Positions 953 through 9,871 of a stretch of 9,871 nt of DNA are shown piece after piece. The DNA lies in contig CP070629.1 in NCBI GenBank assembly GCA_020356005.1, positions 258,991 through 268,861 on the forward strand, read 5' to 3'. Source of the stretch: Thermoplasmata archaeon (GTDB taxonomy: Archaea > Thermoplasmatota > Penumbrarchaeia > JAEHCK01 > GCA-020356005). The notes below the pieces were generated by a model. It did not search any database. It was not told where the DNA came from and was given only the letters and a program-made list of their open reading frames with translations. Position 1 is the first letter of the stretch. Each line of letters starts with the position of its first letter. A program made the position numbers and the translations under genes.

Positions 953-3900
953 TTATTTTTTTGCTTCTTCTCCAGGTAGAGAAACTGAAAATCCATCGCC
1001 AATGTCCACTGCCTCTTTCTTTTTCAAATCGCTCTTCTTGGGCTGAACTTCATCCGGAACATCGGTTTGGGGAGGTTGTGAACTCACCTGATCATAATCT
1101 CGTGCTCGCGGCTGCGTTGTCAGATCCTCCCCACCATAAACATATTCTCCCGGCCGGGGAACACCTTGTTGCATCTCTGGACCTGGACCAGGCCCAAGGG
1201 CTGGTAATTCAGCACCGTGCGGTTCAATTCCCCCGATCATTGGAGCCGGGGGTATTTCCGCTCCGGGTTGAAGACCTGGAGCAGCTGATAGGGATGCAAT
1301 TTCTTGTTCGGTTTTTTTAGCAGCCGCTGCTTCCTCTGCCTCTGCAATTGCCATGCGAAGTTTATGGCGGTCCTCGCTTATCACCTTGGTTTGTTTTTTA
1401 ATAAAGATAAAAACAATTATACCCACAATTATAAAAACAATAATAAGAATTATCAAATTAACCATAAAAGAACCGGAGAATAATTTGTCTTCGGAATCTT
1501 TAGATGTATCACTACCCTTTCCATCGTCATCTGCTAGAAGAGTGATATTATAATTTCCCTTCTCAGGAACTGTGACGCTGTTGTTTCGAAAGTCACTTAC
1601 TTCAATCTTATAATAAATTCTATCTCCACCGGTGTATTCTGCTAATTCTACCAATTCAACTCTGTCGATGTTGATGCTGTATTTCCCGTCAGAGGATTCT
1701 GTCATGGTCCTACCGGTGGTTTGGTCATTAAAATAGACCGTAACCTCGGATATGCCGACATTATCTGTTACCTCAACTGTTATTACAAGATTGGTATACC
1801 GGTTCTGAGAGATATCACCGGTGACATTGTGAATCTCCGGCGGAATATTGTCCACGATATTGATACGCTTATGACCCGAAGCCGGGTACCTGATCTCATT
1901 GACGGGATCGGATTTATCAGTCACGGAAAGGTAAAATTCAAGGTACGGGTCGTTTCTATTCTCAAGTTGATAGTTTAACATGGATTTACCGCTTTTTTCA
2001 TCCTTCGAAAGAACATCATACTGGTAATCCAGGTCGGTAGAATACCGCCAATTTATGGTTGCCTGATTTATACCGCTGTCGGTATCATTCAAATTAAATT
2101 TAAATAAGAAAGCAGCACCCGCCGTAACATGGGCTGGAGTTTCATCCTTTACAGAGGGTGGTGTGGTATCAATCCTGATAACTTTGGTGTCTTTATCAGA
2201 CCATGTTCCCATGTTGTCAACTGCCTTAACGTGGAAATACCATATGCCATCTGTTAACTCTTCCTCAACAATCAGTTCTGGATTACTGGTACCATTATGG
2301 GCCAACCGGAACTCTTCTGTTGATAATATTGTAGTGTTTTCAGGTTCCACTTCGAGAGATGTGTCAATGATATAGCTGTACCCCGCTATTCCGCTGGTGT
2401 CCTTTGGTTCGTTCCAATCAAATACCGCACGGTTTTTATTATACCATATACTTTCAAGCGGATGCGAATAACATTGTATCTGCGGAGGCTCTGGCTTTGC
2501 TGTATCGATTTTGAAAATATAGATATCGGACCAGGGGCCCTTGCTCCCGTAGTTATCACGCAGTCTAACTCTCCAGTAGTATGTTTTTTCCTCAAGCTCC
2601 GAATCTATTTTGAAGCTGTTGTCGGTACTATCCAGCGCTTTTGAATAAGCATAAGTCTTGAAGTCATCTTCTAATGCGATGTTAAGTTCAAAGCCAATCT
2701 GATAGTCCGTTGGATCCGGATCATGAAATTCCCATTTTAGTGTCGGTTTGCGGTCTCCCACCCAGCTGTTATTCAGAGGTAATACCGGCGTGGGTTTTGT
2801 TGGAATAGCATTGAATGTGAATTTAATCGTTTCCAGCACAGGAGTGTAACCGGGCTCGGTGGTGGACAGAACTGCCTTGTATTGTAAATATCGTCCTCCT
2901 TTGTAGCCAAACTCTGATTGTTCTTTTATTACTTTCTCCCAGCTGAGAGAATTTAAACCTACCGAGTTAGAAGACTGTCGAAAATAAATCTCGAGATTTG
3001 TACCCTCGGGTTCTGTACTTGTCCAGTTCACCAGTCTTAACGGGAGGCCGAGATCCTCTCCCAAATCGATTATGTCTGATTCCTTTGTATAACTATCCGG
3101 ATAAGTATAATAATCAATATTGACCCACTTTAATTTCGGCGTGTATAAAGGATTTCCGGTACTTATTTGCACATTATATGCCAGATATTTACTTCCGTCA
3201 AGAACTGCAGGTGTAGCCTCTCCATTTTTTTCATCAAAATAAGTATTGGTCTTGCCGTTCGGTCCAATAAATGAATCAGCGTTCTCCGGTGAATCGTCGG
3301 ATCCTGCAAGCTGAATCTTAACGGGATTGCTTCCAACATGTGTTGGAGCTGGATTGTAAACACCGAATGATACGGATTGTAAATTCATTCTATATCTGGG
3401 ATGATATATAGATGAACTGAGTTCGCCCGGTGATACATATGCCGAAGCATTTGGACTATAACCCCAGTAATCCTTCCGCCATCCACCAGAACTATATCCG
3501 CCGAATATTACTAACTTATTATGAATTGTATCCCAATCGCCCTCTGCATAATCTCTGGGAGGCGGGCCTCTTAATTTAGGCTCCCATGTATCTGAATCGA
3601 TATCATACCACCATGTTTCGTTCCTATACCCGTCTTTATATCCTCCCGTTATAACTATTTTTTTATTGTAGGTATCCCAGGCCATTATTGGACGATTTCT
3701 ATCGGCGACACCGCTGTGGTTGACCCAGGTATCGTTGTTAGGGAAATATTCATTCAGTTCCCATACATAATCGTATCCGGAGCCCGAAGTATATCCTTCG
3801 CAGCCCCCGTATACCATCATGGAATTCGTTTTCGGGCACCATATAGCATCATGATAGAACCGAGGTATATAATCCTTCATTTGTGCCCACATATCAGTCT

Positions 3901-4720
3901 GGACATTATAAATAAAAACATCATTGGAGGCATTATAAAAATCACCTATATAACCGCCGTACACTATAATCTGTTGAGTAACGGGGTTAAATGCTCCTCC
4001 GGAATAAGATCTTGCACCCATCCCTCCCGATTTCGGTGTCCATGTCTTGGTGGTAGGAGAATAACACCATAGATCATTCAATAAATCCCAGGATGAATCC
4101 CGACCGCCGTGAACCCACAATTGATTATTAACACTATCCCAAACCATGATAGCGGATGTCCTGGCAGGTGGTGGGTTCGAATGGCTAATTTGTTTCCAGG
4201 CATCTGTTTCGGGGTTGTATTCATACAAATTATTCGATGTGCCTACACCACTAATATAACCACCGAAGATAAGAAAAACTTTTTCACTGGGGCACCAAAC
4301 CATAGAATGTCGGTACAATTCCGTCGGGCCGTCGCCCAGATTCTCCCAAACCTCAATTTCGCCCCCTGTTTCTAGTTCAAGATGGCCGTCGGAGGGTGAG
4401 TAAACTAGATTCGACGATGAGTTATATTTAGAGGGGTCCTCCCAGATTATTTGATTTGGTCCTCCGCTCCAGTTGCTTTGGTTCCAGGAACCCTCTACCT
4501 TTGGCATCGATATCGGATCTGTAAATTCTTTTACCATATTGTTGCGTGAGGGGGATGATGAGCGGGTGATTTCAGCATCTTTTGATGTTTCCTCTCTAGG
4601 ATTTGATTCGTCAGCATAATCATCCTGATATACCGGATCAGATGAGTAACTAATCTGTGCTGGGAATATTAAAATTAAACAAAGTAAGACCGTTAAGAGA
4701 GCCCATTTCAATCCAGTCAT
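953..4720 (-). CDS. Large secreted, C-terminally membrane-anchored surface protein. It contains a signal peptide, a six-blade Kelch-type beta-propeller, repeated beta-sandwich (FN3/Ig-like) domains, a TM helix and a Pro/Gly/Glu-rich cytoplasmic tail.
   Basis: The track ORF 953-4756 begins at a TTG. I prefer the ATG at 4718-4720 (MTGLKWALLTVLLCLILIFPAQISYS, a signal-peptide-like sequence) because GGAGG sits 7 nt upstream of it. Six Kelch-like blades carry the hydrophobic-GG[YRC] signature: VFLIFGGY, LWVHGGR, IIVYGGY, MMVYGGC, IVITGGY and LVIFGGY, each followed by W/Y-rich strands (nt about 3461-4324). There is a duplicated domain ending YLAYNVQISTGNPLYTPKLKWVNIDY / YLQYKAVLSTTEPGYTPVLETIKFTF. 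An FN3-like unit carries TYYWRVRLRD. A further unit carries GIAGYSYIID...DGIWYFHVKAVDNMGTWS. The TM helix FMVNLIILIIVFIIVGIIVFIFI (nt 1400-1468) is followed by KKQTK. The stop is TAA at 953-955. Confidence 0.9.
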   Translation of the reverse strand: MTGLKWALLTVLLCLILIFPAQISYSSDPVYQDDYADESNPREETSKDAEITRSSSPSRNNMVKEFTDPISMPKVEGSWNQSNWSGGPNQIIWEDPSKYNSSSNLVYSPSDGHLELETGGEIEVWENLGDGPTELYRHSMVWCPSEKVFLIFGGYISGVGTSNNLYEYNPETDAWKQISHSNPPPARTSAIMVWDSVNNQLWVHGGRDSSWDLLNDLWCYSPTTKTWTPKSGGMGARSYSGGAFNPVTQQIIVYGGYIGDFYNASNDVFIYNVQTDMWAQMKDYIPRFYHDAIWCPKTNSMMVYGGCEGYTSGSGYDYVWELNEYFPNNDTWVNHSGVADRNRPIMAWDTYNKKIVITGGYKDGYRNETWWYDIDSDTWEPKLRGPPPRDYAEGDWDTIHNKLVIFGGYSSGGWRKDYWGYSPNASAYVSPGELSSSIYHPRYRMNLQSVSFGVYNPAPTHVGSNPVKIQLAGSDDSPENADSFIGPNGKTNTYFDEKNGEATPAVLDGSKYLAYNVQISTGNPLYTPKLKWVNIDYYTYPDSYTKESDIIDLGEDLGLPLRLVNWTSTEPEGTNLEIYFRQSSNSVGLNSLSWEKVIKEQSEFGYKGGRYLQYKAVLSTTEPGYTPVLETIKFTFNAIPTKPTPVLPLNNSWVGDRKPTLKWEFHDPDPTDYQIGFELNIALEDDFKTYAYSKALDSTDNSFKIDSELEEKTYYWRVRLRDNYGSKGPWSDIYIFKIDTAKPEPPQIQCYSHPLESIWYNKNRAVFDWNEPKDTSGIAGYSYIIDTSLEVEPENTTILSTEEFRLAHNGTSNPELIVEEELTDGIWYFHVKAVDNMGTWSDKDTKVIRIDTTPPSVKDETPAHVTAGAAFLFKFNLNDTDSGINQATINWRYSTDLDYQYDVLSKDEKSGKSMLNYQLENRNDPYLEFYLSVTDKSDPVNEIRYPASGHKRINIVDNIPPEIHNVTGDISQNRYTNLVITVEVTDNVGISEVTVYFNDQTTGRTMTESSDGKYSINIDRVELVELAEYTGGDRIYYKIEVSDFRNNSVTVPEKGNYNITLLADDDGKGSDTSKDSEDKLFSGSFMVNLIILIIVFIIVGIIVFIFIKKQTKVISEDRHKLRMAIAEAEEAAAAKKTEQEIASLSAAPGLQPGAEIPPAPMIGGIEPHGAELPALGPGPGPEMQQGVPRPGEYVYGGEDLTTQPRARDYDQVSSQPPQTDVPDEVQPKKSDLKKKEAVDIGDGFSVSLPGEEAKK

Positions 4721-4727
4721 TTCATTG

Positions 4728-4732
4728 CCTCC
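4728..4732 (-). promoter_or_regulatory. Shine-Dalgarno site (GGAGG) for the Kelch-repeat surface protein
   Basis: The minus strand reads gcaagtGGAGGcaatgaaATG, giving a 7-nt spacer to the ATG at 4720. Confidence 0.6.
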
Positions 4733-4776
4733 ACTTGCATCCCTGCGCCCAGCCAAACAAACTTACCGTCCCATCG

Positions 4777-4901: not shown

Positions 4902-5933
4902 TTATACCAGTGAATATCCGGCATAGACTGTAATAAGCATCATAATAGTAGTAATTCGACCGAACCATCTATGAAGCGCTTTGAATTTTTTTGATGACCC
5001 GGCGGGTTTGGTTATGGTCTTTCCCAGTCTTAAGGTTATGACTATGAAGATTACTGTAATTAAACCAAGGAAGGTGTGAGGTTCGCTAAAATGCTCATTC
5101 GTACTTACGGAGATCATGTAGAAAGCATACCCGAAACCAATGAATGCAAAAACCCCACCAAATCCCTCCAGCGTTTTATGAGCAGAAAACCACCACGTCT
5201 TCTTTTTCATTGCCCCTGCAATTGCATTACCGGATCCTATGAGTATCAATCCTATTATCATTAAAAACGCGTGAAGCTGCCATCGTACTTCCTCATCTTC
5301 TTCAACCTCACCGGTTACAAGGTTAATTGTTCCAGATCCGAACTCTGAGTGTTGAGCATTAAAGTTATCGGAACTTCCATATGCCCAGATTACCTCCAGT
5401 TCTCCTGACTTTTTTATCGGTGCATCATAGGTATCGCCGGTAGAAAGGTCGCGGGTGAACTCGATGTGTGTCCAGCCGTCGCTTTCAGAACCTCCGCTGG
5501 ATTCGATATCATCGGTACCTCCCAGGTCCTCGTCGACGGGGTGGTCCCTGGAGGATTCGGAATAACAGTCCAGGACCGTGGCGCCGCCTGTGCTGTTAAC
5601 CCAGCCGATGATCATATCTGCATCTGTCATGCTGTTACCAATTCCGAATGCAACCCATCCGTTGGTTTTTGCGCTCAACCCAATTGAGATATTGGATTCG
5701 CCCACCGTCCAGTAAATCTTGAAATCACCGCCTGCAAATTCGGCTTTATGATCATATTCGTTTGCCGATATGATTCCATTAATTACGGGAACTGTTCCAT
5801 CACTATTTTCACCGGCAGCCGGAATGACTATAATAGCAGTAATAATTACAAAAAGAATCGACAAAGCAATGAATTTCGAAAATGATCTGTAATTATTTAC
5901 CAATCCGAATTGGTTTTTATGATAAAATCTCAA
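4902..5933 (-). CDS. Membrane redox protein with an N-terminal signal-anchor, an extracellular DOMON-like domain and a C-terminal four-helix cytochrome b561-like / ferric-reductase-like module carrying four conserved-position histidines
   Basis: The ORF is 343 codons and starts at TTG (5931-5933), 4 nt downstream of GAGGTGA. The N-terminus is FSKFIALSILFVIITAIIVIPAAG. The DOMON-like pattern is INGIISANEYDHKAEF..FKIYWTV..ISIGLSAKTNGWVAFGIGNSMTDADMIIGWV...VLDCYS...GWTHIEFTRDLSTGDTYD..I....ELEVIWAYG (nt about 5319-5786). Four TM helices then each start with a His: WQLH221AF, FSAH252KT, EPH286TF and KALH321RW. The lysine-rich loops (AMKKK, GKTITKPAGSSKKFK) alternate as the positive-inside rule predicts. 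The stop is TAA. Confidence 0.85.
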   Translation of the reverse strand: MRFYHKNQFGLVNNYRSFSKFIALSILFVIITAIIVIPAAGENSDGTVPVINGIISANEYDHKAEFAGGDFKIYWTVGESNISIGLSAKTNGWVAFGIGNSMTDADMIIGWVNSTGGATVLDCYSESSRDHPVDEDLGGTDDIESSGGSESDGWTHIEFTRDLSTGDTYDAPIKKSGELEVIWAYGSSDNFNAQHSEFGSGTINLVTGEVEEDEEVRWQLHAFLMIIGLILIGSGNAIAGAMKKKTWWFSAHKTLEGFGGVFAFIGFGYAFYMISVSTNEHFSEPHTFLGLITVIFIVITLRLGKTITKPAGSSKKFKALHRWFGRITTIMMLITVYAGYSLV

Positions 5934-5937
5934 TTTC

Positions 5938-5944
5938 TCACCTC
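5938..5944 (-). promoter_or_regulatory. Shine-Dalgarno site (GAGGTGA) for the DOMON-cytochrome b gene
   Basis: The minus strand reads cgcGAGGTGAgaaaTTG. This is a 7-nt match to the canonical anti-SD complement (GGAGGTGATC) with a 4-nt spacer, and it supports the TTG start. Confidence 0.65.
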
Positions 5945-6033
5945 GCGGGATACTTTGCTTAGCATAAATACAGCATTAATATTATATTATTTTGGTTTTT
6001 GCTGATTGTTAGAAGCTGAATAATCAATAAAAT

Positions 6034-6068
6034 CAGGTTCCAGGTTCTGGGTTCTAGGTTCTATGGCC
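6034..6068. repeat. Tandem heptamer array (NN-GGTTC) with 4 good copies plus 1 degenerate copy
   Basis: The array reads caGGTTC caGGTTC tgGGTTC taGGTTC tatggcc. It lies in the intergenic region 100-135 nt upstream of the DOMON gene start. Confidence 0.8.
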
Positions 6069-6149
6069 AAGGACACAGGACCAAAGACCCAGAGGGGGTT
6101 TAAATTTAATGGGATTACCTAGTCGGTTTTGGTAGGGGCTTTTTTCAAC

Positions 6150-6176
6150 CGCGAAAGCCGCGAAGTTCGCGAAAGA
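6150..6176. repeat. Three tandem 9-nt units (CGCGAARNN) containing a 13-bp dyad CGCGAA-g-TTCGCG
   Basis: The units read CGCGAAAGC CGCGAAGTT CGCGAAAGA, with an exact period of 9. The 6+1+6 palindrome is at 6159-6171. Confidence 0.8.
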
Positions 6177-6198
6177 TGATCTAGGGTTTTGATTCAAA

Positions 6199-6268
6199 CT
6201 GCCCACTGCCAGTGCTTAAAATCATAATAATAGCGAAACGGCCTGCCTCCTGCCAGCGCTTTTAATCA
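6199..6268. repeat. Imperfect 26-nt direct repeat, 2 copies, period 44 nt
   Basis: Copy 1 (6199-6224) is ctgcccactgccagtgcttaaaatca. Copy 2 (6243-6268) is ctgcctcctgccagcgcttttaatca. They match at 21 of 26 positions, and each contains CTGCCnnCTGCCAG. Confidence 0.75.
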
Positions 6269-6307
6269 ATGTGGAATCGAAGCGTTCTCGCTGAAATCGA
6301 AGTTAAA

Positions 6308-7117
6308 TCAAATCGGTATGTCTATTCCGGTATACTCGTGCTTCAGCTTGAACAGCAGCTGTCCCGTCTCAGCATCCAGTGCAGTAATAAACGATCCGTC
6401 CTTTGTTGCCGCGTAATACGCCAGCTTCTGCGTCTGGAAATTTGTTACCGAAGTAAAGTCCACCGTGGGGTAGCTCAGGTCGGCGGTGATGCCGTAAGAG
6501 GCCGAATCAAAATTGATACTGCCCCCCGTAAAAATATTTACGTTTATATCGTCATCATCAAGGTTTTTGAAAATATATTCGCTTCCCGCGAAGGTTAAAA
6601 CCGGCCACAAATCGTCCGTTCCGTTCCTGGGTGGATCGATTGTTTTCGCCATATCGTACTTAACCCCCGATTCGCTCACCAGAACATTATATCCGTTGGG
6701 TTCGTCCTTCGAGCCGAAGGTTACATTCCATATCAGCTCGCCATCCGTGCGGTTGCAGTAAGCCGTTGTCACATACGCCTCAGGATAATTGTTCAGGTAA
6801 TCATTGACTCCAGACAGCGGCAGGATATATGAGGTCATTGCGTTATCAGGTGAAAAGGCTTCAAAACTGTTTGTCAAATTGGATTTCTTGAGGCTGGGCA
6901 GGTAATTCCAATCATCGGCAAAATCAGATGCGAGGGTTGAATCCATATCCGAATACACCACCGGATAATGGTTGTTAGAATCGAACTCCTCATTGCATTC
7001 TTGGCTGCTGATTGAGGTGCTGCCCGCTGTGTAACCTTTCAATTGATTGGCATAATTCATCACAACGGTATTACCGTCGATTGTAAATTGTACATGCAGA
7101 ACAGATTTCAATGCCAC
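6308..7117 (-). CDS. Third (C-terminal, extracellular-type) segment of the composite reading frame; domain family unknown
   Basis: The track ORF is 269 aa and starts at a GTG (7115-7117) with no SD. The first ATG is at 7058-7060. There is no signal peptide or TM helix, yet the composition is Asn/Ser/Thr/Asp/Tyr-rich like the neighbouring extracellular domains. It is in the same phase as 7139-8224 and separated from it only by a TAA plus 7 sense codons. The stop is TGA at 6308-6310. Confidence 0.6.
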   Translation of the reverse strand: MALKSVLHVQFTIDGNTVVMNYANQLKGYTAGSTSISSQECNEEFDSNNHYPVVYSDMDSTLASDFADDWNYLPSLKKSNLTNSFEAFSPDNAMTSYILPLSGVNDYLNNYPEAYVTTAYCNRTDGELIWNVTFGSKDEPNGYNVLVSESGVKYDMAKTIDPPRNGTDDLWPVLTFAGSEYIFKNLDDDDINVNIFTGGSINFDSASYGITADLSYPTVDFTSVTNFQTQKLAYYAATKDGSFITALDAETGQLLFKLKHEYTGIDIPI

Positions 7118-7138
7118 CGGGTAGTTGTTGCCCAGCCA

Positions 7139-8224
7139 TTAATGCATGTAGAACTCATCGATGTTGTTGTCCTTGAGCGTCCCCGAATCCAGGTGGAATT
7201 CCAGCTTCAATGCCGGGTTGCCCGAGGCCTGGTCGGCGGATACAGCAATCCAGCTGTAGGCTACATTGTCGTAGATTATGGTATCCCGGTCGCCCAGCTC
7301 GATGGGATCCTCGGAAAGGTCTGCAAGCCTCAGCCTGCTGGGTGTGGCGCGGAGGTCGGGGAAGCTCGTAAGTTCATCAGTAGACTGCATTTCCAGCGGG
7401 ATGGAGACCGGCTCGGTAATTTCGGAGTCCAGATCGAGATCATTTGTAGTGTGTATCTGAATCGTATGACCTGTCGTATAATCGGTATATGAGGTCTCCA
7501 CCGAGTTCATCGTGCCGGTTATGGGTAGGGTCTCCTGGTACGACCCCGCGGTGGTGCTGGTCATGGATGCATCCATGGAACCGCTGATTTCGAGGTTCTG
7601 GCGGATTTCCCTGATATATACATCGTGAAGATTATTGAAACCGCTGGCGATTTGTGATGGTGAATCAAAAATGCTGGTTGACATTGGATCATTTGTCACA
7701 TTTCTGAAGTTTAACAGGATATTATTTATGTTGATATCCATCACACCAAAAAACTCGGAGCCAGAATTATAAGAAAAGCTTGCGATATTATCAGGATTGG
7801 TAACTGTGATGTTTCCCTCGCTAAGAAACAGTCCCGAATCACCCAGCAGTTCTTCAGAGACAATGACTTCCAGTGGATTTATCGTAATAGAGATGGAATC
7901 CGAATCAAGCTGGCCTTCCGCGGTTTCAACGGTTAGTGAAACCGTATATTCATTTTTTTCTGCTACAGTTTGTGCAAAATAACCCCCGACATAGATTGAA
8001 GTGTCAGAACCTGAAGTTAATATAAAATCGGTATCGAATATCCATTGGTATGCTGAGATCTCACCTATAGATCGCGCGGCATTGAAATTGAGGGTCTCAC
8101 CGGCATATGCCTGTGTATTGTCAACCTCTATGACCGCTTCAAGTTCACCCGGCGTAATTCCATTACCGTTTCCATCCTGCGAGGTTTCGATATATATCAT
8201 CCACAATAGAACCGCCATTATCAA
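7139..8224 (-). CDS. Middle segment of the composite reading frame, comprising the C-terminal half of a TM helix, a PKD-like Ig-fold domain and further extracellular sequence
   Basis: The track ORF is 361 aa. It begins at a TTG (8222-8224), with an ATG at 8216-8218. The PKD-like pattern is AVIEVDNTQAYAGETLNFNAARSIGEISAYQWIFDTDF...YFAQTVAEKNEYTVSLTVETAEGQLDSDSISITINP (nt about 7874-8143). The apparent N-terminus MIMAVLLWMIYIE is only half a helix; the other half is encoded upstream of the start, in frame. It ends at the TAA at 7139-7141. Confidence 0.7.
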   Translation of the reverse strand: MIMAVLLWMIYIETSQDGNGNGITPGELEAVIEVDNTQAYAGETLNFNAARSIGEISAYQWIFDTDFILTSGSDTSIYVGGYFAQTVAEKNEYTVSLTVETAEGQLDSDSISITINPLEVIVSEELLGDSGLFLSEGNITVTNPDNIASFSYNSGSEFFGVMDININNILLNFRNVTNDPMSTSIFDSPSQIASGFNNLHDVYIREIRQNLEISGSMDASMTSTTAGSYQETLPITGTMNSVETSYTDYTTGHTIQIHTTNDLDLDSEITEPVSIPLEMQSTDELTSFPDLRATPSRLRLADLSEDPIELGDRDTIIYDNVAYSWIAVSADQASGNPALKLEFHLDSGTLKDNNIDEFYMH

Positions 8225-8311
8225 GATCCCTGCAATGCCAACCGCAGCAATTTTTACACTCTGGGTTTTGGCAGGTGGGCGCGCACCGGGCTTTGGTTTC
8301 GCCTTTGCTTC

Positions 8312-8956
8312 TTAACTCTTCTTTTCCGTTGGGACCTCCAAACCCAGCATTGACATGGGGACTTCGGCTTCCTCTTCCTCCTCCTCCTTCTCTACTTCCT
8401 CCTCTTCTTCTGCCTCTCGCTTCTTCTCTCTCGGCTCTTCTACAGCTTCAAGCTCTCTGACACGCGCTGCATCGGAGACCTTCGGTTCCCTTATCTCCTC
8501 TTTGACCTTTTTTGGCTTTACCTCTTCCTCTTCTTCGAGATCGCCAATTAAAATCGTCTCTTCATCCTCTGGCGGCGGCGGTTCCACCGGCAGGGGTTTA
8601 CCCACCAGCATCAGCTTATCTTCTTTTTCTGTTCGCACTTTCGGCCTGGCCTTTCTGACAGGAGCTCCAACTAAAATAGTGCTCTCATCCTCTGCTTCCT
8701 CTTCCTCTACTTCCTCTTCGACCTCTTTCTCATAAGGTTCGGAGGGTTCCTCAACTTCCTCCTCAACCTCCTCTTCTATCCTGATTTTTTTGGGCGTATC
8801 CCCGATCTGTCCCCGCAGGATCTCCAGCCTGCGTTTCTTGAACATCTCAAAATCCGAATCCAGAAGTTCTGCAAGACCACTTACGTCGAACCCCAGGTTT
8901 TTCCATTCCTCGATTTTAGCTAAATACCGCGCTTTATCTTTCGCAGAGGGCTTCAT
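8312..8956 (-). CDS. Acidic, low-complexity, cytoplasmic-type protein or N-terminal segment of the composite frame. It has a short helical N-domain (EEWKNLGFDVSGLAELL) followed by Glu-rich tracts that carry repeated [TLS]-[IM]-L-[VI]-G motifs.
   Basis: The track ORF 8312-8971 starts at a GTG. I prefer the ATG at 8954-8956, which is preceded by GAAGGT with a 7-nt spacer. There is no hydrophobic segment. It ends at the TAA at 8312-8314. Confidence 0.75.
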   Translation of the reverse strand: MKPSAKDKARYLAKIEEWKNLGFDVSGLAELLDSDFEMFKKRRLEILRGQIGDTPKKIRIEEEVEEEVEEPSEPYEKEVEEEVEEEEAEDESTILVGAPVRKARPKVRTEKEDKLMLVGKPLPVEPPPPEDEETILIGDLEEEEEVKPKKVKEEIREPKVSDAARVRELEAVEEPREKKREAEEEEEVEKEEEEEEAEVPMSMLGLEVPTEKKS

Positions 8957-9005
8957 TGCACAGACCTTCACAGTTGGATTTATTTGTGTAATTAAACGTT
9001 AACCC

Positions 9006-9013
9006 CATATAAA
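9006..9013 (-). promoter_or_regulatory. Candidate TATA box for the 8312-8956 gene
   Basis: The minus strand reads aaacTTTATATGg, 49 nt upstream of the ATG at 8956. That spacing would give a 5'UTR of roughly 25 nt containing the GAAGGT SD-like site. Confidence 0.3.
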
Positions 9014-9111
9014 GTTTATTATTATGTTCTATATAATTGATGGAAATGAGGGGGATTCTGGAGAATTACTAAGAGATTTTTAATAGCTTATAGAAGTGCG
9101 GTAGATGTTTG

Positions 9112-9247
9112 CGGTTGCGAGGGGCGTAACGTTGGACGGCTAAGGCTAAGCGGCCGCTTTCATTACAACTTTCTTTAAATTCAATTCGACACGCTCTTCG
9201 CAACCGGATGACGTTACGCACATCGCAGCCGTCCAACGTTAGACGCC
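9112..9247. repeat. Compound inverted-repeat element with three complementary pairs in interleaved (A-B-C...A'-B'-C') order around a GCGGCCGC-centred 12-bp palindrome
   Basis: A 9112-9120 cggttgcga pairs with A' 9198-9206 tcgcaaccg. B 9124-9132 gcgtaacgt pairs with B' 9211-9219 acgttacgc. C 9127-9141 taacgttggacggct pairs with C' 9227-9241 agccgtccaacgtta. The C pair extends by GGCG 9123-9126 / CGCC 9244-9247 across a 2-nt bulge. The palindrome aagcggccgctt is at 9148-9159, and a tandem GGCTAA x2 is at 9138-9149. Confidence 0.7.
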
Positions 9248-9288
9248 AGACTGATAGCCTACACTAATCAAAGTGGTCTCGTTTATAT

Positions 9289-9296
9289 AAAAAAAA
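9289..9296 (-). terminator. Oligo-T (T8) tract, a candidate terminator of the rRNA transcription unit
   Basis: The minus strand reads ggattttccTTTTTTTTatataaa, about 105-110 nt downstream of the estimated mature 23S 3' end. Confidence 0.5.
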
Positions 9297-9399
9297 GGAA
9301 AATCCATATGCAATCTGTCAAATGGTTGAGAAGACGCGTGATTGTGGCCTGAACTGTTAGTGACTGCGGGCTGAATACCTCGGCCTTCAACACGGCGAC

Positions 9400-9871
9400 A
9401 CCGCGGACAAAGTCGTTGGTGTCACGGAATGTGAGGAAGGTGATCCCTTGGTACTTACACCCCAGTTCTATCAAACTTATCTTCTATAAGAGTTCTAAGG
9501 TGCTTCGTCTTGGGGCCGGCTTCGAGCTTAGATGCTTTCAGCTCTTATCCGAGACAGCGTGGCTGCCCAGCAATGCCCTACCGGACAACTGGTAAACTAG
9601 TGGCTCCAGAGCCTTGTTCCTCTCGTACTAAAGGCTCTTTCCCCTCAAGCATCAAAACGATTCCAGCACAAAGCAACAAACCTGTCTCACGACGGTCTAA
9701 ACCCATCTCACGATCCCTTTTAATGGGCGAACAACCCCACCCTTGGCAGCTGCTGCACTGCCAGGATAGGAAGAGACGACATCGAAGTAGCAAGCCTTCA
9801 GGTCGATGTGAGCTCTTGCTGAAGACAACTCAGTTATCCCCGGGGTAACTTTTCTGTCATCAATGACCCCC
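9400..9871 (-). rRNA. rrl: 23S (large-subunit) rRNA, 3'-terminal ~470 nt (domains V-VI); the 5' part lies beyond the window
   Basis: The minus strand carries universally conserved LSU motifs. CCCCGGGGATAAC (peptidyl-transferase-centre region) is at 9833-9845. TTCGATGTCG..CTCTTCCTATCCTGG follows. GGGTTTAGACCGTCGTGAGACAGGT is at 9680-9704. The sarcin-ricin loop AGTACGAGAGGAAC is at 9616-9629. GCTGAAAGCATCTAAGC is at 9526-9542. The 3' boundary (about 9400-9415) was estimated by eye against remembered E. coli and Haloarcula 3' ends and is uncertain by about +/-30 nt. Confidence 0.92.

Follow-up and report, generated by a model that had tools for sequence, protein, structure and literature searches.

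A gene for a putative archaeal surface protein, interrupted by two in-frame TAA codons, is most likely an ordinary nonsense-disrupted gene

The stretch of DNA analysed here (the window; 9,871 nucleotides (nt) of contig CP070629.1 from a Thermoplasmata archaeon) carries on its minus strand three adjacent open reading frames (ORFs), at 8312-8971, 7139-8224 and 6308-7117, which share a single phase. The original prediction held that the three are one reading frame interrupted by nothing but two TAA codons, and translation bears this out: reading the minus strand from 8971 to 6308 we count 888 codons and only two internal stops, TAA at 8312-8314 and TAA at 7139-7141. The peptide strings that it quoted across the breaks, as well as its statements on start codons, are correct. 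The true start is likely to be ATG at 8956 and not GTG at 8971, as judged from the match to Met1 of an 885-residue orthologue. The gene, its stops and the pieces into which it has been annotated are laid out as follows (TM, transmembrane; L001 and L002 are two loci that carry orthologues).

6308..8956, minus strand: whole ancestral gene, 882 codons including the two in-frame TAA codons, plus the terminal TGA
8312..8314, minus strand: premature stop 1, TAA, codon 215, in a variable charged linker directly before a basic juxtamembrane stretch
7139..7141, minus strand: premature stop 2, TAA, codon 606, within the folded, beta-rich part of the ectodomain
6308..6310, minus strand: true terminator, TGA; the L001 and L002 orthologues also have TGA at the aligned position
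8312..8956, minus strand: fragment 1, JSV49_00810, UCH89221.1, 214 residues, identical to the window translation (P0010)
7139..8218, minus strand: fragment 2, JSV49_00805, UCH89220.1, 359 residues, annotated start ATG 8218, inside the TM helix
6308..7111, minus strand: fragment 3, JSV49_00800, UCH89219.1, 267 residues, TTG start, without signal peptide or TM helix

In the NCBI annotation, JSV49_00810, JSV49_00805 and JSV49_00800, whose products match the window fragments exactly, stand as three separate hypothetical proteins of "MAG: Thermoplasmata archaeon" (MAG, metagenome-assembled genome) on a contig of 3,578,571 bp, and each of them is known from that single contig only. Of the pieces, only fragment 1 has a native start; its product would be soluble and cytoplasmic. 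Past the first TAA, the nearest canonical starts are TTG at 8224 and then ATG at 8218 (residues 245 and 247), both of which fall within the TM helix placed at residues 237-257 by an AlphaFold2 model. The claim that this helix straddles the first break needs a correction: the first available starts do cut the helix, but what the helix straddles is the start of the second ORF. The TAA lies 22 codons upstream of the helix, where the acidic linker meets the basic juxtamembrane stretch. The third segment lacks a signal peptide and a TM helix, as had been stated. Following the terminal TGA, the next in-frame stop lies 13 codons on.

The two premature stops differ in their downstream context, which reads TAA-GAA at break 1 and TAA-TGG at break 2. 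Both are preceded by T, so that each reads TTAA, a coincidence to which we attach no significance. At stop 2 (7139-7143) the sequence forms a TAATG stop-start overlap whose ATG opens a short ORF only. Reinitiation at this site was considered as a candidate and rejected because this ATG does not share the frame of the conserved sequence downstream.

A protein search over 5.8 billion proteins returned two close relatives of the reconstructed gene product. One (P0002) is an uninterrupted protein of 885 residues with 56% identity to the window copy; the other (P0001) is 58% identical and has lost its N-terminus to a contig end. Both are collinear with the window gene across the two breaks, without a frameshift. 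An exhaustive HMMER search of 1.84 billion representatives places the gene in a family of 267 matches at E<=1e-3, 43 of them at E<=1e-30, many of which are full-length (850-930 residues) and cover the whole profile; some 20 of the more distant members are likewise uninterrupted. A second, word-index protein search with a profile of 21 sequences (the window copy plus 20 homologues) returned generic PKD proteins only. Because homologues without interruption can be aligned over their full length across the two breaks, the layout of three ORFs is not a product of chance and, by this comparison, the three annotated ORFs are pieces of one gene for a predicted membrane protein of about 880 residues.

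The original prediction had asked whether orthologues carry a sense codon or a conserved TAA at the two positions, and the answer is a sense codon at both. At break 1 the L001 orthologue has GAG (Glu), in a column that varies across the 21-sequence alignment between E, K, G, V, S, D and a gap. At break 2 the codons are CTC in L001 and CTG in L002, both for Leu, and all 20 aligned homologues have L, V, F, I or M there, followed by a near-invariant Trp607. Neither stop is conserved in any of the 20. In the AlphaFold2 model, residue 606 sits between strands 599-604 and 608-609, in blocks with a predicted local distance difference test score (pLDDT) of 93-94; break 2 thus lies inside a confidently modelled beta domain (pLDDT >90) and so does not coincide with a natural gene or domain boundary. 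Frameshifts or an elevated ratio of nonsynonymous to synonymous substitution (dN/dS) in relatives, which had been named as signs of decay, are not what we find, because the relatives are intact.

What kind of protein has been interrupted? The AlphaFold2 model, built on the 21-sequence alignment, has a mean pLDDT of 75 and exceeds 90 over most of the ectodomain. It divides the gene product into the following parts.

8807..8956, minus strand: N-terminal cytoplasmic three-helix domain, residues ~1-50 (AlphaFold2 helices 5-20, 28-34 and 36-48, pLDDT 80-87)
8252..8803, minus strand: acidic, low-complexity, disordered linker with a basic end, residues ~52-235 (pLDDT <50)
8186..8248, minus strand: single TM helix, residues 237-257 (AlphaFold2)
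7904..8110, minus strand: PKD domain, residues ~283-351 (Pfam, PDB profile, Foldseek)
6323..7873, minus strand: remaining ectodomain (AlphaFold2 pLDDT mostly >90)

The three-helix domain is conserved family-wide, with the consensus KIxxWxxLGFxTxxLExLLxxDFxxF, and has no match in Pfam or NCBIfam. A stretch rich in K and R precedes the TM helix both in the window copy and in the homologues, which fits the positive-inside rule and therefore suggests that the N-terminus lies inside the cell. The PKD-like extracellular domain that had been proposed is a sub-threshold match when the window copy is considered alone (Pfam E=0.005, 17.2 bits, below the cutoff of 23.5) and becomes a strong one at the level of the family: PKD and PKD_4 are matched in 14 and 13 of the 21 members, respectively, with a best E of 3e-21; the family profile compared against the PDB finds collagenase PKD (E 4e-16); and Foldseek finds the PKD domains of ColG and ColH with probability 1.0 (TMt 0.68-0.78). 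Beyond it, the ectodomain is rich in beta structure over a long region (residues ~362-650) and closes with a C-terminal alpha/beta region (~700-878) that comprises two units, each of a helix plus 4 strands. For this part we found no Pfam family and no confident global Foldseek match in the PDB, the sole partial match being 4exr, a putative lipoprotein (TMt 0.56). The proposal of one gene encoding an acidic cytoplasmic domain, a TM helix and extracellular domains is thus upheld by the uninterrupted collinear homologues and by the model, and the protein would be a single-pass, receptor-like surface protein with its N-terminus inside.

Its likeness to the clostridial collagenases ColG and ColH and to archaeal PKD surface proteins amounts to one PKD domain, which in the window protein directly follows the membrane anchor. 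Unlike known PKD surface proteins, the window protein has the three-helix domain and about 520 ectodomain residues without a convincing match in Pfam, NCBIfam or the PDB. One family member (P0029) carries a Ser/Thr kinase in place of the three-helix domain on the same ectodomain; that the kinase is cytoplasmic points to the architecture of a transmembrane sensor. The three-helix domain, for its part, behaves as a mobile module (P0029, P0110, P0134-P0148), being found on short proteins and, in a zinc-ribbon protein, at the C-terminus. A by-product of the analysis is the definition of a conserved, uncharacterised family of archaeal receptor-like membrane proteins with 267 detectable members, one variant of which has a cytoplasmic kinase.

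Having established that the pieces belong together, we asked how the interruption is to be read. Our preferred reading, which we hold to be somewhat more probable than all others together, is that the gene is a recently inactivated pseudogene with two real single-base nonsense substitutions that has been annotated as three hypothetical proteins. At codon 215 a single substitution would probably have turned Glu GAA into TAA, and at codon 606, a conserved hydrophobic core position, it was probably Leu TTA that became TAA. Translation would then halt at codon 215 and yield only the 214-residue soluble cytoplasmic fragment. The TM helix and the ectodomain would not be made, because the first downstream starts fall within the helix and the third piece lacks an export signal, and their loss would leave a loss-of-function allele of a surface protein. 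The downstream pieces are indeed not self-sufficient: TTG 8224 and ATG 8218 both start within the TM helix, and break 2 splits a folded beta domain. Nor are nonsense mutations rare in a gene of this composition, since about 4.2% of random substitutions in it create a stop, a figure that rises to 5.7% in the Glu/Lys-rich linker. Losing a surface-exposed, receptor-like protein may have been neutral or advantageous, and one conceivable benefit, on which we can only speculate, is escape from a virus that uses the protein.

In several respects the locus resembles other nonsense-disrupted pseudogenes ("split genes"): intact homologues exist, the stops occupy sense positions, the downstream pieces lack native starts and export signals, and the pieces are annotated as separate hypothetical proteins. 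It departs from the usual split gene in having two nonsense codons, no frameshift and no measurable relaxation of constraint, which would make the disruption either very recent or artefactual.

A number of observations weigh against inactivation by real mutations. The 882 codons of the window copy contain no frameshift. Amino-acid changes unique to one lineage number 42 and 29 in segments 2 and 3 of the window copy, as against 59 and 32 in one intact orthologue and 49 and 35 in the other, and deviations at columns conserved in the family (24/136) are likewise within the range of intact members (31/139 and 21/116), keeping in mind that at 56-58% identity such comparisons have low power to reveal relaxed constraint. 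Had the gene decayed neutrally between the two nonsense mutations, the second of them should have been preceded by about 24 further substitutions and by anything from one to a few indels; two dozen extra substitutions are undetectable at this divergence, but two stops without any indel are mildly unusual under neutral decay. Both lesions, moreover, produced the same codon, TAA, each of them after a T. Finally, a search of metagenome and genome contigs with the family alignment revealed neither a closer relative nor an independent assembly of the locus, a DNA pattern spanning the second TAA found no match in metagenome contigs, and exact-protein look-ups of the window's own products turned up no independent assembly. 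Note that pairwise dN/dS is about 0.09-0.13, but synonymous sites are saturated (proportion of synonymous differences 0.72-0.84), so that the ratio cannot date the lesions. The absence of a frameshift and of excess divergence therefore implies that the lesions are very recent or that one or both are consensus errors.

The latter scenario, to which we assign a smaller though by no means negligible probability, supposes that the real gene is intact and that one or both TAA codons are artefacts of MAG assembly or polishing, or stem from a chimeric consensus of strain variants. It accommodates a gene that is otherwise perfect, without frameshift or excess divergence, and in which each lesion is one base off the codon expected from the homologues; the sequence is, furthermore, that of a MAG, a single contig of 3.58 Mb, of which no independent assembly was found. 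Two independent stop-creating errors in one gene would nevertheless be very improbable (the chance is about 4% per substitution), the rest of the window is clean (a kelch ORF of 1,267 residues and a DOMON ORF of 343 residues, both intact, and a 23S rRNA fragment scoring 467 bits), and indels typical of unpolished long reads are absent. It is the improbability of two random stop-producing errors in an otherwise clean region that leads us to favour real mutations over an artefact.

The most exciting of the explanations put forward by the original prediction, which also named a recent double-nonsense pseudogene and a base-calling error, was programmed read-through of TAA. On this account UAA is read through in a programmed or tolerated manner, so that most product is the soluble acidic protein ending at codon 215 and a fraction is extended into membrane-anchored isoforms. 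In its favour, the frame has been kept over 882 codons without signs of decay in the downstream segments, L001 shares a conserved promoter-proximal region, and there is bacterial precedent for low-level expression of disrupted genes (Salmonella; PMC9122581). All the same, we consider read-through very unlikely. The stops are absent from all 20 homologues: L001 has GAG at break 1, L001 and L002 have CTC and CTG at break 2, and the latter position is hydrophobic in 20/20. Orthologues with sense codons at both sites were an outcome that the original prediction itself had listed as refuting. Near-cognate decoding of UAA inserts Gln, Lys, Tyr or Glu, so that at break 2 a polar residue would land at a conserved hydrophobic core position. 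Neither UAA-G nor UAA-U, the contexts found here, is known to be leaky. The adjacent genes use TAA as their normal terminator, and two successive read-through events would multiply two small probabilities. RNA folding of the 100 nt at and after each stop was no better than that of shuffled sequence (z +0.35, -0.61, +0.63 and -0.62), a scan of 5900-9400 against Rfam gave no match at E<=1, and a tRNA search of the 9.9-kb window found none. Programmed UAA read-through would also be without precedent in Archaea, where a review lists selenocysteine (Sec; UGA) and pyrrolysine (Pyl; UAG) as the only demonstrated cases of read-through (PMC8211752). Those systems, too, present an in-frame stop within a conserved ORF. 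In them, however, the stop is conserved among orthologues and is served by a dedicated tRNA and machinery, together with a selenocysteine insertion sequence (SECIS) in the case of Sec, whereas the window gene has UAA codons that are not conserved, no structure that we could find, and ordinary Glu and Leu residues aligned with them. The Salmonella "pseudo-pseudogenes" offer a looser parallel, in that a disrupted gene could still yield traces of full-length product through translational errors; the events described in that report (PMC9122581) are bacterial, low-level and not programmed. That both UAA codons are real and read at a useful rate, giving a 214-residue soluble protein plus rarer membrane-anchored isoforms that bear the ectodomain, strikes us as slightly less probable still, the intact frame and the absence of decay being the only points that speak for it. 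Were it true, it would give Archaea their first described case of programmed UAA read-through, and TAA codons that are both real and translated would bear on whether Archaea use read-through beyond Sec and Pyl. A related idea, that TAA has been reassigned to sense genome-wide in this lineage, can draw on a single fact, namely that both internal stops are TAA while the true terminator of the gene is TGA, and we give it next to no credence. Both neighbours, the kelch and the DOMON gene, terminate with TAA at positions that agree with their orthologues, followed in frame by a second stop after 10 codons in the former and 4 in the latter; the C-terminus of the DOMON protein lies no more than 3 residues from that of its L001 orthologue. 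No in-frame TAA occurs in the remaining ~1,600 complete codons of the window, nor is any other gene in it interrupted; the L001 contig also ends gyrB, orf183 and DOMON with TAA; and one of the two TAA codons is aligned with Glu, the other with Leu. A screen of all NCBI archaeal assemblies (bioRxiv 10.64898/2026.04.02.715157) and a genome-wide code screen (PMC8629427) report no genuine reassignment of TAA in Archaea. Within the window, reassignment is effectively refuted.

The gene is thus most likely an ordinary nonsense-disrupted gene, and the more exciting interpretation as read-through is not supported. The practical consequence is mainly a correction to the annotation, in which JSV49_00800, JSV49_00805 and JSV49_00810 ought to be combined as a single disrupted gene. 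The case also shows that a gene split by nonsense codons can mimic a recoding signal. Biologically, the locus would represent a recent loss-of-function allele of a gene for a cell-surface protein; genes of this class, we infer, are often lost under phage or predation pressure.

The remainder of the window holds the following genes.

9337-9871, minus strand: 3' 535 nt of an archaeal 23S rRNA (467 bits)
953-4756, minus strand: kelch gene, 1,267 residues, intact, with a Kelch beta-propeller, several immunoglobulin-like domains and a C-terminal TM region
4902-5933: DOMON/cytochrome b561 gene, 343 residues, intact, TAA-terminated

Together with the focal gene, the kelch and DOMON genes form a cluster of cell-envelope proteins beside an rRNA gene. 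The DOMON/cytochrome b561 protein is 343 residues long in the window and 504 in L001 (6328-7842), where about 190 extra N-terminal residues have no counterpart in the window; the window protein begins with a hydrophobic N-terminal segment of its own.

Gene order around the focal gene differs from that in both L001 and L002. The gene block (6250-9060, including about 100 nt of conserved sequence upstream of the gene) has the opposite orientation with respect to both flanks. The DOMON gene of L001 lies upstream of the focal gene and is divergent from it, in L002 the 3' end of the 23S gene lies downstream and is convergent, and in the window the 23S gene, the focal gene and the DOMON gene are all co-directional. 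A single in-place inversion, in either lineage, would explain the order differences to both loci; a search for inverted repeats flanking the block found nothing convincing.

The interval that must hold the right-hand breakpoint of this inversion, 9059-9256, contains an element of about 135 nt (9112-9247, minus strand) between the 3' end of the 23S gene and the promoter region of the focal gene. It can form a long, near-perfect stem, with perfect arms of 15 nt and further arms of 21 nt at 86%, and folds with a minimum free energy of -52.3 kcal/mol (z = -3.35, 0/200 shuffles as good). Nothing in Rfam matches the hairpin, the window contains it only once, and the corresponding flank of L002, similar from 9256 onward, lacks it. 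It could be an insertion resembling a miniature inverted-repeat transposable element (MITE), a structure involved in processing or termination, or a small RNA. The left-hand breakpoint falls within 5975-6307, some 330 nt of non-coding sequence between the TGA of the focal gene and the DOMON gene, which is of fairly high GC content and has no Rfam match. At ~6030-6060 there is a short run of degenerate heptamers (agaaccT agaaccC agaaccT ggaaccT).

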